Positions 33,001 through 36,000 of a DNA stretch of 64,000 bases are shown here, piece after piece (position 1 is the first letter of the stretch; every line of letters starts with the position of its first letter). The stretch is taken from the NCBI GenBank assembly GCA_002726235.1, contig PBSN01000008.1:606136-670135 (forward strand), read 5' to 3'. Position numbers: made by a program. This stretch comes from Nitrospiraceae bacterium (GTDB lineage: Bacteria > Nitrospirota > Nitrospiria > Nitrospirales > UBA2166).

Positions 33001-36000
33001 GGAGGAGCCTTTGGTGCTAGCGCAACAACCGAAGGGGAAAGTCCTGGCATCGACGCGTACGAATATAATGAGGCTCAAACACTGGGGCGACGAGTCGCCG
33101 AAGTCGCATCTCTCGTGAAAGGTGGCCAATTACGCCAAACACGGAAGACAAGCCCATAGATTCAACACCCCTTATCACTGAGAGGTATTGTCCAGCGTCT
33201 TCTCGTGAATTATCATCTTTCATGCGGCTGACCACAGAGCTTCCAAATAATTCATCCCCCTTAGGAAGGCTGACGATTTCATGACAGACTCGCGAATCGC
33301 CATAGCAACAGTGGATACAATCTCGATTGCAAGCCACTCAAACCATGGCGACACTACTGTCCTATGAAATTTCTAACCCTCATTCAATATTTTGAACGGC
33401 TTGAAGCGACGACCAAGCGTCTTGATATGTTTGAAATTCTTGCCGAGCTTTTTCGTCTCTCCAACGCCAACGAAATCGACAAGATTATTTACCTCGTTCA
33501 AGAACAATTACTCCCTTCGTTCTATACCTTGGAAATGGGCATGTCTGAAAAGTTACTCATCCGAGCAATTACTGATGCATCGGGCAAGGACCTCACTGAG
33601 ATCCAGCAACATTTTCGATCCAGTGGAGACTTAGGGATAACAACGGAGCATTTTTTGAGCGGTCAGCATGGCACCAACCTCGACGTACACACCGTGTATT
33701 CACAACTCTGCGACCTCGCAGAGCTGGCAGGAAAGGGAAGTGTTGAACAAAAGGTTGAAGCGCTCACAGCACTCCTGCATTCCGCAACACCAACCGAAGC
33801 CAAGTACATTAGCCGTTTTGTAGTCGGTCGAATGCGCTTAGGCACAGGAAATGCCACAATACTTGAAGCCTTAAGCCTCGCCAAGACCGGCGAGCGGAAA
33901 CCCAAGACAATCCTCGAACGCGGATTCAATCTCTGTTCGGATCTCGGAATGGTAGGCCGTATTTTGTTTACCGATGGCATTTCTGGAATCGAGAAAATCA
34001 GCCCGACGGTGGGATCCCCTATCCGCATGGCCTTATGCGAGCGTGTTGCAACCCCCGAGGACGTGATTAAGAAAATCGGTCGCTGTTCCGTCGAACCAAA
34101 ATTGGACGGGTTTCGTTGCCAAATTCATAAATCCAAAGAAGAGGTTGAAATTTTCTCACGCAACCTCGAACGCACGACGCCAATGTTCCCTGAACTGGTT
34201 CAGGCCACAAAGACGGCAATCAACGCCGAGAGTATCATCTTCGAAGGTGAGGCCCTCAGCTATGACGATCTGACGGGCGAACTTCAGCCATTCCAAGTCA
34301 CCATACAGCGGAAACGAAAACACGGCATCGTGCAAGCTGCGACGGATATTCCGCTGAAACTCTTTGCGTTTGATCTTCTCTACGTCAACGGCGAGGACTG
34401 GACGAATCGGGCATATTCTGATCGACGCAAGCTATTAAGTTCGTTGATTACAAACAACCCGGTCATCGAACTCGGGCATGCCGATGAGACAGATGATCCT
34501 GCCGAGTTTTCCCGGATATTCCAGACTGCTATCGATAAAGGCGCAGAGGGCGTAGTAGCCAAACGCCTTGACGGCCCATACAAAGCTGGTGCACGAGATT
34601 TCAACTGGATCAAACTTAAACGTAGCTACAAAGGAACGCTGGCCGATACGGTAGACGTATGTCTAGTCGGCTATTTCAGTGGAAAAGGCACACGTGCTGA
34701 ATTCGGTATCGGAGCGGTACTTGCAACTGTCTACGATCCCAATACTGATACGTTTAAAACAGTCTCTCGAATCGGCTCAGGATTCTCCCAAGAGGACTGG
34801 GGCCGACTGCGCAAAGTTCTTGACTCCCATGCCTCAGAATCAATGCCACCACGTGTAGTCTCAACACTCACCCCTAACGTGTGGGTTCATCCCCACACCG
34901 TGATCACAGTAATGGCTGATGAAATCACCCGCTCAGCAATGCATACCTGTGGAAAAGATGAAAATGGCATTGGATATGCACTGCGGTTTCCTCGCGCACA
35001 AGGGTTTATTCGCAGTGACAAGAATCCTGAAGACGCAACAACCGTTTCCGAAATCATCACCATGTCGGAAAGCCAAAAACTCATAAAGCTGGCATGAGAT
35101 CTTGAGGCTGTTCGCAAATATACCTACCCAAAGACTTGACTGCGGGTTAAAGGAAAAGGGTATTATTTAAAATATCACGCCATAGGAGAAATACATCACC
35201 ACCGTTAACAGAGGCTCAGTGTCATTTTTCCGAACAATTTAAGGAGGATACAATGCGAAAATACACGAATATTCTCGTCACAATCCTTGTTCTTGGATGT
35301 ATTGCGTTCACCGCAGGAGGCGCAATCGCAGACAGCGACCATGGCCATGGCCATGGCCCCGATGAGGCAATGGGCCACCTAAACGCGGCGATTTCTCACG
35401 CAAAGGGTGCGGTCATGCATGGTGGAGAGGGACATGCGGGAGAAGTATCGAAGCATGCTGCAGAATCCATTGCACACGCGAAAGGAGCTATTCACAGCAT
35501 GCCTTCTAAAAATCCCCATGGGGCAGAAGCTATATCACACATCAAGGAAGCTGTAACGCACCTGCAGGCTGCGGTAAAACACGGGGACCAAGGACATGCT
35601 GACCAAGCCACGAGTCACGCGAACGAAGGTGTCAACCATCTTGGTGGCGCGGCAATGCACGCAAAAGAAGTACACTAACAAGATGTTGAAACAGTCCTCC
35701 AGCAGCGTTCTCGACCCTTTGTCGTCTTCCCGTGGACACTCCGAACTTCACAGTCCATTCGGCCCTGCTGAACAGATGATTTTTAATATCCTGCAGATTG
35801 TGTGAATACCTCGCGGGGTGACGTGAAATCGTCACCCCGTTATTTTACACTCAGTGCCCCATACCATGCCCACTGCTGCCGTGATGGCCTTTCTTGCCAT
35901 GATGGCCCTTGCCCAAACCGGCATGACCATGACCCATCATGTGACCATGTACCATCGTTGAAAACTGTTCCTGCTGTTCAGTCGTCAGCTCCTTCTTCAC

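Follow-up and report, generated by a model that had tools for sequence, protein, structure and literature searches.

Reviews of DNA ligases (PMC5052709 and PMC7470946, in the parts available, and PMC12133292) describe the NAD+-dependent LigA as present in all bacteria and essential for replication, with ATP-dependent ligases always being additions to it. LigA is also named as a possible antibacterial drug target, in the available part of the 2016 review (PMC5052709) and in the abstract of another paper, and why bacteria favour NAD+ ligases is described as a question of long standing in the accessible text of 10.1101/2020.05.11.089284. Exceptions to the rule have nevertheless been printed. As far as the available text of the 2015 Babela/TM6 paper goes, an ATP-dependent ligase replacing LigA appears there in one clause of a list of lost genes (PMC4378268). 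For high-light Prochlorococcus, LigA is considered functionally lost and the ligase AD-Lig P is proposed to be the replicative enzyme; in the part of the preprint available, only in-vitro activity is shown for AD-Lig P (Hjerde et al. 2020, bioRxiv 10.1101/2020.05.11.089284). Other work likens AD-Lig P structurally to the phage T4 ligase. It occupies the ligA slot, where truncated ligA remnants persist.

The enzymes closest in build to the one described here are the archaeal replicative ligases (S. solfataricus 2HIV/7RPX, P. furiosus 2CFM) and human Lig1, which have the same succession of DNA-binding, adenylation and OB domains and all six motifs. The same domain architecture is found in the bacterial Lig B, one of the Lig B-E classes that are said to go back to Williamson et al. 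2016 (Mol Microbiol). About half of the bacterial Lig B cluster with the archaeal replicative ligases, Chloroflexi being named, and Lig B is described as always standing beside LigA, with a repair role and with genes for Lhr, MPE and an exonuclease clustered around it (Williamson and Leiros 2020, PMC7470946, in the part available).

The earlier note on the genome studied here had set it against the rule that bacteria replicate with LigA. The rule as worded in the reviews is indeed contradicted, but Babela/TM6 and high-light Prochlorococcus had already broken it in print; the replacement is real and of a kind already known, though under-appreciated. The cases in Nitrospirota, in Chloroflexota and in an order of the PVC group are new to the literature searched, in which, with most subscription journals outside its coverage, no report of this replacement was found for these three groups.

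The ligase gene and its product

The window, the whole stretch of 64,000 nucleotides that was analysed (C8:606136-670135), belongs to an assembly (G000) of 1.87 Mb in 27 contigs that is 90.65% complete. On its + strand, an intact open reading frame with an ATG start codon (33364..35097, stop codon included) encodes an ATP-dependent DNA ligase of the Lig1/archaeal type with 577 amino acids, an assignment in which Pfam, NCBIfam, the PDB match and an AF2 model agree. TIGR00574 is matched with 418 bits against a cut-off of 217.8, in an alignment that spans positions 2-525 of the 527 in the profile. An N-terminal alpha-helical DNA-binding domain (residues 3-171; 33370..33876, +; PF04675, DNA_ligase_A_N, 126 bits), all-helical in the model, is followed by the adenylation or nucleotidyltransferase domain with motifs I, III, IIIa, IV and V (residues 224-419; 34033..34620, +; PF01068, DNA_ligase_A_M, 169 bits) and by an OB-fold domain (residues 448-553; 34705..35022, +; PF04679, DNA_ligase_A_C, 52.5 bits) that includes motif VI, RFPR, at 541-544.

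A regular-expression search of the translation located KLDGFR at 246, FEGE at 293, FAFD at 334, EGVVAK at 395, WIKLK at 415 and RFPR at 541, which we take to be motifs I, III, IIIa, IV, V and VI in their usual consensus forms. K246 (codon 34099..34101, +), located by this search, is the motif I lysine that is predicted to accept the AMP; together with D248, G249 and R251, with the lysines of motif V and with RFPR, it is invariant in a 40-sequence alignment of relatives (A2). The closest solved structure is the S. solfataricus ligase 2hiv, with a full-length identity of 39% (phmmer E 7e-130). The model itself (pLDDT 90.5, pTM 0.73) retrieved 2hiv with Foldseek at E 2.8e-58 and 7rpx_E at TMq 0.79, and was superposed on the DNA-bound human Lig1 (9bs3_A) with TMq 0.87 and rmsd 3.3.

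The equivalog cut-offs of the LigB type are not reached (TIGR04120 132.9 against 400; NF006701 152.8 against 543), nor are those of LigD, of which only the core is matched (TIGR02779 153.8 against 227.75; TIGR02776 132.1 against 373.2). PF01653 gave no match on the protein, and the Ia domain of NAD+-type ligases is missing. These two absences bear on whether the enzyme is strictly ATP-dependent or could use NAD+, ADP or GTP, also or instead, since its cofactor is assigned from the family alone. Some archaeal ligases of this family take alternative nucleotide cofactors in vitro. Human LigIV is reported to be able to use NAD+ (PMC6379666, available part). Against this, the Ia domain, which binds the NMN moiety, is missing from ATP-dependent ligases (PMC5052709, available part) and from the present one, and the nearest solved relatives are ATP-dependent enzymes, so that we hold another cofactor to be highly improbable.

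Absence of LigA and distribution of the two ligases

As the earlier note had claimed, the genome has no recognisable ligA. PF01653 matched nothing in G000 at E<=10, TIGR00575 gave only an 18-bit helix-hairpin-helix match located in UvrC, and tblastn for LigA reached a best E of 1.2. A custom profile of three Nitrospirota LigA proteins was run unfiltered on all 24,686 six-frame ORFs of at least 40 amino acids; the best score was 7.2 bits (E 1.6), and neither LigA nor a remnant of it emerged. PF01068 and PF09414 each match this ligase gene alone in the genome, which agrees with the domains and motifs in upholding the further claim of a sole ligase of 577 amino acids, of the three-domain type with K246. 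It is thus the only recognisable DNA ligase in G000, and LigA is truly missing from the lineage.

The distribution within the order was followed in 121 genomes, comprising five of family f1 (UBA2166, including G000), 21 of f4, 48 of f2 and 47 of f3. All five f1 genomes lack PF01653 matches and carry the ATP-ligase homologue, with 77-88% identity in the four sisters, just as had been noted before. The same had been said of f4, where it holds for most genomes: a homologue of 58-64% identity is present in 19 of the 21, but PF01653 is matched in two, and the exceptions are G061, with a 49% fragment only, and G040 (93% complete), which has a 29% match only and thus neither LigA nor a close ATP-ligase homologue. 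Both PF01653 matches in f4 sit on contigs of at most 6 kb; one of these LigA sequences is 74-77% identical to f2 LigA, and the other 41-43% identical to any Nitrospirales LigA. In f2 and f3, stated earlier to have LigA and to lack this ligase, both parts stand, with PF01653 in 47 of 48 and 47 of 47 genomes, respectively, and ATP-ligase matches that are only 27-33% identical, found in 15 of the 95 genomes. These LigB- and LigD-like paralogues of LigA-bearing genomes, the true LigB-like ones included, branch far from this ligase in the tree. The sole f2 genome missed by PF01653, G100, carries the C-terminal half of LigA (429.6 bits), and looks like a case of a truncated copy.

In a wider sample of 201 genomes of the phylum, LigA is missing from 22 of the 23 that carry this ligase, whereas PF01653 is found in 174 of the other 178, G100 having in addition its truncated LigA. 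Three genomes, namely G194, G199 and another one of f16 that is deduced from family tallies, showed neither ligase. The two ligases therefore nearly exclude each other in these larger samples, and the strict either-or of the earlier note was too strong, as one genome (G241) has both, each of them native. Its full-length LigA (815 bits) is 85-92% identical to the LigA of congeners, and its ATP ligase is 92.5% identical to that of the congener G189, which has no LigA; the genus also contains LigA-only and ATP-only species. Since the two enzymes coexist in G241, the presence of the ATP ligase alone is no proof of a replicative role. Both cofactor classes likewise occur in one cell in Haloferax volcanii, with LigA (ATP) and LigN (NAD+), either of which alone suffices, and this genome, used as a control, matches both PF01653 and PF01068. 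The direction there is the opposite, with an NAD+ ligase entering an archaeon, apparently by lateral transfer (PMC1684257, available part).

The distribution also bears on the possibility that LigA is present in G000 but was missed, being either too divergent or in the roughly 9% that is unassembled, and that the ATP ligase is an accessory repair enzyme like Lig B. Because of the incompleteness of the assembly, the absence in G000 taken alone rests on its relatives; moreover, a contig break hid the LigA adenylation domain in G100, and bacterial ATP ligases of this architecture are called accessory in the 2020 review (PMC7470946, available part). However, LigA was not found in the four sister genomes (73-98% complete), nor in the closed f15 genomes G137 and G144, where this ligase type is the single PF01068 match, nor in G260 (4.6 Mb, linked to a Manganitrophaceae record 'chromosome: 1'). 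PF01653 recovered LigA in 94 of the 95 f2 and f3 genomes and in 11 control genomes, and the control gene dnaN was recovered in 41 of 41 phylum genomes; in G000, even the unfiltered clade-specific profile and tblastn gave no LigA fragment. Finally, 22 of the 23 genomes with the ATP ligase lack LigA, compared with 4 of the 178 without it, a split that is not the product of random gaps. We hold a missed LigA to be very improbable.

Genomic setting, proposed role and possible clamp docking

The ligase gene lies among genes for a histidine phosphatase (gpmA-like), a Zn-ADH, an FMN reductase, SMBP, a metal-resistance protein, an HhH-GPD glycosylase and LipB. Its GC content of 0.492 is close to the mean of the coding sequences (0.497, sd 0.031), and it ranks at the 37th percentile of 167 genes in codon-usage distance. 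Synteny is kept at four loci (L049-L052), where the relatives, one of them Nitrospiraceae bacterium UBA2166, are 73-87% identical, and the subclades of the gene tree match the family codes. Judging from composition, synteny and phylogeny, the gene has probably resided in the chromosome for long and taken on its composition, and its descent within Nitrospirota would be largely vertical. The best named representatives outside Nitrospirota belong to Woesearchaeota (50% identity) and Micrarchaeia (46%), with 17 of the 20 that were looked up having no taxon name; further donor leads, from the Atlas only, are Nitrososphaerota, Chloroflexota, Microcaldota and Actinomycetota.

We consider it probable that the gene encodes a functional Lig1/archaeal-type ATP-dependent ligase that has become the sole and replicative ligase after the loss of LigA. 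By analogy with its family, ATP would adenylate K246, the DNA-binding, adenylation and OB domains would close as a ring on nicked duplex DNA, and the AMP would be transferred to the 5' phosphate before attack by the 3' OH seals the nick. With no LigA and no other ligase in the genome, this enzyme would have to seal the Okazaki fragments, following DNA polymerase I, and would also complete excision repair. It would thereby act as the replicative ligase of an otherwise bacterial replisome, and DnaA, DnaN and PolA are all encoded in G000. The loss of LigA in this lineage would then be a non-orthologous displacement, of which the intermediate, two-enzyme state may persist in the one sampled genus that includes G241.

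The replacement resembles that of Prochlorococcus in its comparative-genomic pattern and in concerning streamlined marine bacteria, but differs in that the ligase here is of the Lig1/archaeal type, in that no LigA remnant was found and in that no common slot can be demonstrated. For the latter comparison, the 19-kb ligA regions of G241 and of three closed genomes, two from f3 and one from f2, were taken, and their neighbours mapped to G000. The ligA neighbourhoods are not conserved between the families in these four genomes, and an empty slot is not demonstrable because they differ. In G241, a pncC/cinA-C-like gene stands ahead of ligA, and the cinA-like gene of G000 (C8:526105-527352) is not followed by ligA, which is too weak to count as a slot.

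The gene for the HhH-GPD glycosylase is about 1.6 kb from that of the ligase, and a gene for an ExoIII-family nuclease about 3.7 kb, and such neighbours might fit a role in base-excision repair. There is also no direct tie of the ligase gene to the replisome, and the enzyme might serve repair only, with Okazaki fragments being sealed by some enzyme that went unrecognised and whose family is not yet known to include DNA ligases. This would, however, leave unexpected the tight reciprocal distribution with LigA in four phyla, which is that of a functional replacement rather than of an add-on, and no other covalent nucleotidyltransferase ligase was found in G000 with PF01068, PF01653 and PF09414. 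The accessory paralogues of 27-33% identity coexist freely with LigA, which this clade does not. In addition, foreign ATP-dependent ligases, such as those of T4 and Chlorella virus, can support the growth of enterobacterial ligA mutants. A repair-only ligase is thus very unlikely in our view, and a replicative enzyme remains the reading that we prefer. The Lhr/MPE/exonuclease set is not among the ligase neighbours, which, along with scores far below the LigB-type cut-offs and the lack of LigA, distinguishes the present ligase from Lig B.

Compared with the archaeal and human ligases, this one belongs to a bacterial host whose clamp is DnaN, not PCNA, has a short loop where P. furiosus has QKSFF, and ends in a clade-specific C-terminal tail. 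QKSFF is presumably the PCNA-binding site of the P. furiosus ligase, and the loop at its position lacks such a motif (phmmer alignment). A loss of the PCNA loop as a bacterial adaptation was ruled out, since a representative from Micrarchaeia has a loop just as short; one Nitrospirota genome (G140) retains a long loop at this position. The extreme C-terminal tail, QKLIKLA (residues 571-577; 35074..35094, +), follows a consensus Q-[KR]-x-V-K-[LV]-x throughout the clade, and 104 of 119 close homologues end in the pattern Qxx[VILM]x[VILMF], with 0-2 residues after it. The pattern is missing in f15, in the Chloroflexia, PVC and Dependentiae ligases and in the archaeal relatives. In the model, the helix 561-576 runs on into the tail, with a pLDDT of 63 for the last block. 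The tail may be a tether to the beta-clamp, a hypothesis on which a complex prediction of the DnaN of G000 (A1) with ligase residues 430-577 (A2) gave no answer, its score of 0.00 speaking neither for nor against binding.

A DNA contig of another study covers the whole ligase ORF with one difference, and pieces of the ORF occur with no differences in contigs from two RNA libraries of one sample, which, as DNA carry-over is possible, gives a weak hint of transcription.

LigA-replacing ligases in other phyla

Surveys outside Nitrospirota, in genomes without completeness figures, gave a similar pattern in three groups. In an order of Chloroflexia, LigA is absent from 35 of 40 genomes and a close ligase is present in all 35 of these; in the PVC-group order, 18 of 19 genomes lack LigA and 17 of 19 have a TIGR00574 match over the cut-off. 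In the Dependentiae, the class containing a Dependentiae MAG was surveyed, and PF01653 is found in none of 61 genomes, whereas TIGR00574 is over the cut-off in 60 of them. The exceptions are therefore not confined to two odd lineages, but include free-living Nitrospirota, two of them with closed genomes, the greater part of a Chloroflexia order, an order of the PVC group and all sampled members of the Dependentiae class. Among cultured bacteria, the genome paper of Dictyoglomus turgidum names no ligase in its Table 5 other than an ATP-dependent one. On balance, though with no great confidence, we favour the view that the NAD+/ATP split does not follow the domains of life: Lig1-type ligases would be replicative in whole orders or classes of at least four bacterial phyla (Nitrospirota, Chloroflexota, the phylum of the PVC-group order and Dependentiae), in at least two clades of the ligase tree, would often have been exchanged with LigA, as in the Nitrospirota genus with LigA-only, ATP-only and dual species, and in the main Nitrospirota clade may dock on the bacterial replisome through the conserved tail Q-[KR]-x-V-K-[LV]. 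No bacterial replisome-docking feature common to all the LigA-replacing clades was found, and their C-terminal tails differ from one another.

The preference of bacteria for NAD+ ligases can now be compared directly between sister species that have LigA, both enzymes or just the ATP ligase. The recruitment of an archaeal-type ligase to a beta-clamp replisome becomes testable, as does the relation of LigA loss to NAD+ economy or habitat, and completeness and essential-gene sets that assume a universal ligA will mis-score these clades.

The AU test rejected a tree in which all 21 of the named bacterial ligases that replace LigA form a single clade (p 2.7e-89), a result that is no count of transfers from archaea, as 36 other rows of the tree are unnamed and possibly bacterial. 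Dependentiae resemble the Nitrospirota described here in being bacteria that lack LigA and have an ATP-dependent ligase, but their enzyme is only 38% identical to the present one and groups elsewhere in the ligase tree, in a clade that is well supported. The hosts differ as well, the Dependentiae being reduced parasites of protists, whereas these Nitrospirota are marine and come from seawater and vent-plume metagenomes.

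Ligase gene and LigA searches in its genome

The ORF at window 33364..35097 (+ strand, ATG start, 577 aa from its translation) carries the Pfam domains DNA_ligase_A_N (residues 3-171), DNA_ligase_A_M (residues 224-419) and DNA_ligase_A_C (residues 448-553). It scores 418 bits on the NCBIfam model TIGR00574 (dnl1), for which the cut-off is 218, and its scores on the NCBIfam models for bacterial LigB-type and LigD ligases are far under their own cut-offs. Its translation holds the complete set of ligase motifs I (KLDGFR, K246), III, IIIa, IV, V and VI, with key residues that are invariant among 40 aligned relatives. 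Among solved structures, the S. solfataricus ligase 2HIV matches best in sequence (E 7e-130), followed by the P. furiosus ligase (1.5e-90) and then human Lig1 (~1e-68). An AlphaFold2 model (mean pLDDT 90.5, pTM 0.73) retrieved 2HIV in a structure search (E 2.8e-58) and was superposed on DNA-bound human Lig1 with a TMq of 0.87 and an rmsd of 3.3 Å. All this places the gene soundly within the Lig1/archaeal ligase family, as the three-domain ATP-dependent enzyme with K246 described in the earlier note.

In the assembly of this genome (1.87 Mb, 27 contigs, 90.65% complete), PF01653, typical of the NAD+-dependent ligase LigA, had no match even at E<=10, TIGR00575 gave a single 18-bit helix-hairpin-helix match located within UvrC, and tblastn for LigA gave a lowest E of 1.2. 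With all filters off, a profile of three Nitrospirota LigA proteins reached a top score of 7.2 bits on the 24,686 six-frame ORFs and revealed no LigA remnant. The window ligase is the sole match of both PF01068 and PF09414, and the claim of a genome with no ligA and one ligase is thus borne out. The replication genes are otherwise bacterial; dnaA and dnaN adjoin each other on contig 15, and a 957-aa ORF on contig 8 is presumed, from its length and setting, to be PolA.

Distribution of the two ligases within the Nitrospirota

In the order sample of 121 genomes, LigA was found in 0/5 members of the window's family (UBA2166, f1; completeness 73-98%), 2/21 of f4, 47/48 of f2 and 47/47 of f3. The sole f2 miss, G100, retains the C-terminal half of LigA (429.6 bits), and its PF01653 miss looks, from sequence, like a truncated copy. 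Both f4 matches lie on contigs of at most 6 kb: the first is 74-77% identical to f2 LigA (the f2-f2 range being 70-80%) and seems to be an f2 contig binned wrongly, and the second, at most 41-43% identical to any Nitrospirales LigA, looks foreign. The ATP-dependent ligase is present in 5/5 f1 genomes, the sisters at 77-88% identity, and in 19/21 f4 genomes at 58-64%; the f4 genome G061 has only an N-terminal fragment (49%). Across f2 and f3, ATP-ligase matches occur only at 27-33% identity, in 15/95 genomes. What the earlier note had reported for the five UBA2166 genomes therefore stands, as does the ATP ligase in f4 and its absence in query-type form from f2 and f3; the absence of LigA from f4 needs the reservation of the two short contigs, and its presence in f2 and f3 (94/95) that of the truncated copy.

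The phylum sample held 201 genomes with a requested completeness of at least 90%. Close homologues of the query occur in 23/201 (tblastn identity 45-60%), and in ten LigA-less holders the full-length LigA model gave helix-hairpin-helix matches only, of at most 33 bits. PF01653 is present in 174/178 non-holders; the four others are G100 with its truncated LigA, G194, G199 and, from family tallies, one f16 genome. The single-contig genomes G137 and G144 are without LigA, with a query-type ligase as the only PF01068 match in each, and the control gene dnaN is present in 41/41 phylum genomes. Taken together, the split between the ligases, these two genomes and the control show that chance assembly gaps cannot yield the observed distribution. 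Neither LigA nor a close ATP ligase was detected in G040 (f4), G194 and G199 (f11), which are 90-95% complete; G040 has just LigB- or LigD-like matches at ~29-34% identity, with only a 29% match to the query. In these three, the cause may be gaps in the assemblies or a third solution.

The strict either-or rule proposed earlier holds for 22 of the 23 holders and fails in G241 (99% complete), which carries a full LigA (815 bits, on a 125-kb contig) plus the ATP ligase. Three congeners, one with a closed genome, have a LigA 85-92% identical to this copy; the ATP ligase of G241 shares 92.5% identity with the one in its congener G189, which is without LigA, and the GC content of the two loci is 42-43% each. 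One genus thus holds LigA-only, dual and ATP-only species; the dual state is the intermediate that displacement needs, and the series suggests that the two ligases are interchangeable in nature.

Immediately upstream of ligA in G241 lies a 166-aa gene (locus L070, 8635-9135) matching contig 8:526909-527385 of the window's genome, a stretch overlapping the C-terminal portion of a 415-aa ORF (contig 8:526105-527352) that we take to be cinA-like; by this match the G241 gene would presumably be a pncC-like NMN deamidase. NMN is released by LigA, and such a deamidase would suit. The full cinA-like gene is retained in the window's genome despite the lost LigA. In f2 and f3, a conserved ~630-aa ORF directly precedes ligA (L068 7063-8964, L071 6926-8815, L069 10098-11975), with no homologue in the window's genome by tblastn at E<=1e-10.

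Gene neighbourhood, descent and relatives outside the phylum

The ligase does not stand out in GC (0.492 vs a CDS mean of 0.497 ± 0.031) or in codon-usage distance (37th percentile among 167 genes of similar length). Its neighbourhood is conserved in four loci of relatives with 73-87% identity (L049-L052), and not beyond them, in the order PMT-family glycosyltransferase, gpmA-like phosphatase, Zn-ADH, FMN reductase, ligase, small metal-binding protein (SMBP), His-rich metal-resistance protein, HhH-GPD glycosylase and lipB. The His-rich SMBP (PF16785; 35253-35678, + strand), directly downstream, and the His-rich 'Metal_resist' protein with GHGKK repeats (35851-36651, - strand) remain beside the ligase in L049-L051, and L052 has the SMBP homologue and then the contig end. 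Two base excision repair genes are also near, the HhH-GPD glycosylase (36665-37321, - strand) and an ExoIII-family nuclease (38749-39516, - strand); a second ExoIII-like ORF (contig 8:521181-521957) lies beside the presumed polA.

In a FastTree of 178 ligases, the Nitrospirota form one clade (39 rows, SH-like support 97) with subclades that match the family codes. A quick IQ-TREE of 57 rows groups the non-f15 Nitrospirota together (SH-aLRT 99), f1 being sister to f4 (96), and sets the f15 ligases in a separate clade (100), whose link to the others, at 75, is neither supported nor rejected. This fits an old acquisition followed by mostly vertical descent; the LigA-bearing families either kept or regained LigA, and the ligase trees fit both. 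The beta-clamp genes of f15 are unusually divergent (dnaN of G137, G144, G129 and G150 at ~150 bits on TIGR00663 vs ~290-350 in the other 37 phylum genomes), and its ligases, likewise, group in a long-branched clade of their own.

Among named archaeal representatives, the nearest are from Woesearchaeota (50%) and Micrarchaeia (46%). In the best non-Nitrospirota representative, P0121 (933 aa, with a cluster member named Woesearchaeota), the best-scoring stretch pairs query residue 250 with residue 602; the ligase part starts well inside, and is therefore fused to an N-terminal extension. Ligases 58% identical to the query (L055; P0093, P0100) bear labels of Methanocellales or Halobacteria MAGs, but with L055 placed inside the Nitrospirota clade they are probably mis-binned bacterial contigs, not archaeal genes.

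A species-genome scan found relatives in MAGs named Ca. Manganitrophaceae (57%), PVC-group bacterium (50%) and Chloroflexia (45-49%), and more distantly Dependentiae (38%) and Gammaproteobacteria (37%); five of these genomes gave PF01653 in 0/5, dnaN in 5/5 and the ligase in 5/5. We then considered three groups, with genomes of unstated completeness. In the Chloroflexia order (centre G261), PF01653 occurs in 5 of 40 genomes, which have a 28-31% paralogue only or none, and all 35 LigA-less genomes have a 44-51% homologue (31/31, among 36 genomes, without G266, G267, G268 and G291, flagged as unpublished). Many LigA-less members additionally carry a 28-32% paralogue, which sets an accessory ligase, indifferent to LigA, apart from the one replacing it. 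In the PVC-group order (centre G262), PF01653 occurs in 1 of 19 genomes and TIGR00574 is above cut-off in 17; the LigA holder matches only in part (122 bits), as does one small genome (93 bits, at contig position 5-541). In the Dependentiae class (centre G263) the figures are 0 and 60 of 61, and the Dependentiae and Gammaproteobacteria-MAG ligases fall in another supported clade (97, IQ-TREE) than those of Nitrospirota, Chloroflexia and PVC. In L060 (G261, 2.6-Mb contig) the ligase lies in two frames as neighbouring ORFs (51%, residues 211-567; 40%, residues 3-210), likely a frameshift or a long-read assembly indel error. Another possible LigA-less case is the cultured Dictyoglomus turgidum, whose genome is complete; among its replication and repair enzymes, Table 5 of the genome description lists the ATP-dependent DNA ligase Dtur_0780, 'DNA ligase' occurring once in the full text (PMC5167688).

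Known displacements and predicted working of the ligase

Two reviews state that functional NAD+ ligases have been identified in every bacterial genome (2016, PMC5052709), and that they serve replication in all bacteria studied, ATP ligases being 'in all cases' additional (2020, PMC7470946); in a 2025 review, bacterial Lig B still appears among the repair enzymes (PMC12133292). Two exceptions are in print. A 2015 paper on Babela/TM6 mentions briefly that an ATP-dependent ligase stands in for LigA (PMC4378268), and a 2020 preprint puts forward high-light Prochlorococcus as the first bacterium with LigA so displaced (bioRxiv 10.1101/2020.05.11.089284), with an ATP ligase, AD-Lig P, of a type different from the Lig1/archaeal-type ligase of the window. 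In our literature search no report of LigA displacement came up in Nitrospirota, Chloroflexota or the PVC order. As a phenomenon, replacement of LigA by an ATP-dependent ligase is already known, and this locus is a further instance; the observation of the earlier note is real, its interpretation is right in substance, and what makes the locus valuable is how broad and sharp the pattern is, together with the natural series LigA/both/ATP that it exposes.

ATP as cofactor, nick sealing and essentiality are predictions. By homology, K246 would be adenylated by ATP, the three ligase domains would close around the nick, and AMP would be passed to the 5' phosphate before sealing; as the sole ligase of the genome, the enzyme would have to close both Okazaki fragments and repair patches. 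The window stretch was found in marine, seawater and hydrothermal-vent metagenomes (13 studies). A DNA contig from another study covers the entire ORF with 1 difference, and contigs from two RNA libraries of one vent sample hold three pieces and one piece of it with 0 differences, a weak hint of transcription, since DNA carry-over is possible.

In the main Nitrospirota clade, 104/119 close homologues carry the tail Q-[KR]-x-V-K-[LV]-x at their very end, which we regard as loosely like C-terminal beta-clamp motifs; the f15, Chloroflexia, PVC and Dependentiae ligases have different tails. Special docking to the replisome may be unneeded, because foreign ATP ligases are able to replace LigA in enterobacteria. 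The f17 ligase of L035 (G140) has a long loop, RQPVSLFDAI, where the P. furiosus ligase has QKSFF (query residues ~101-104), and to our eye this loop resembles both PIP-box and beta-clamp motifs.
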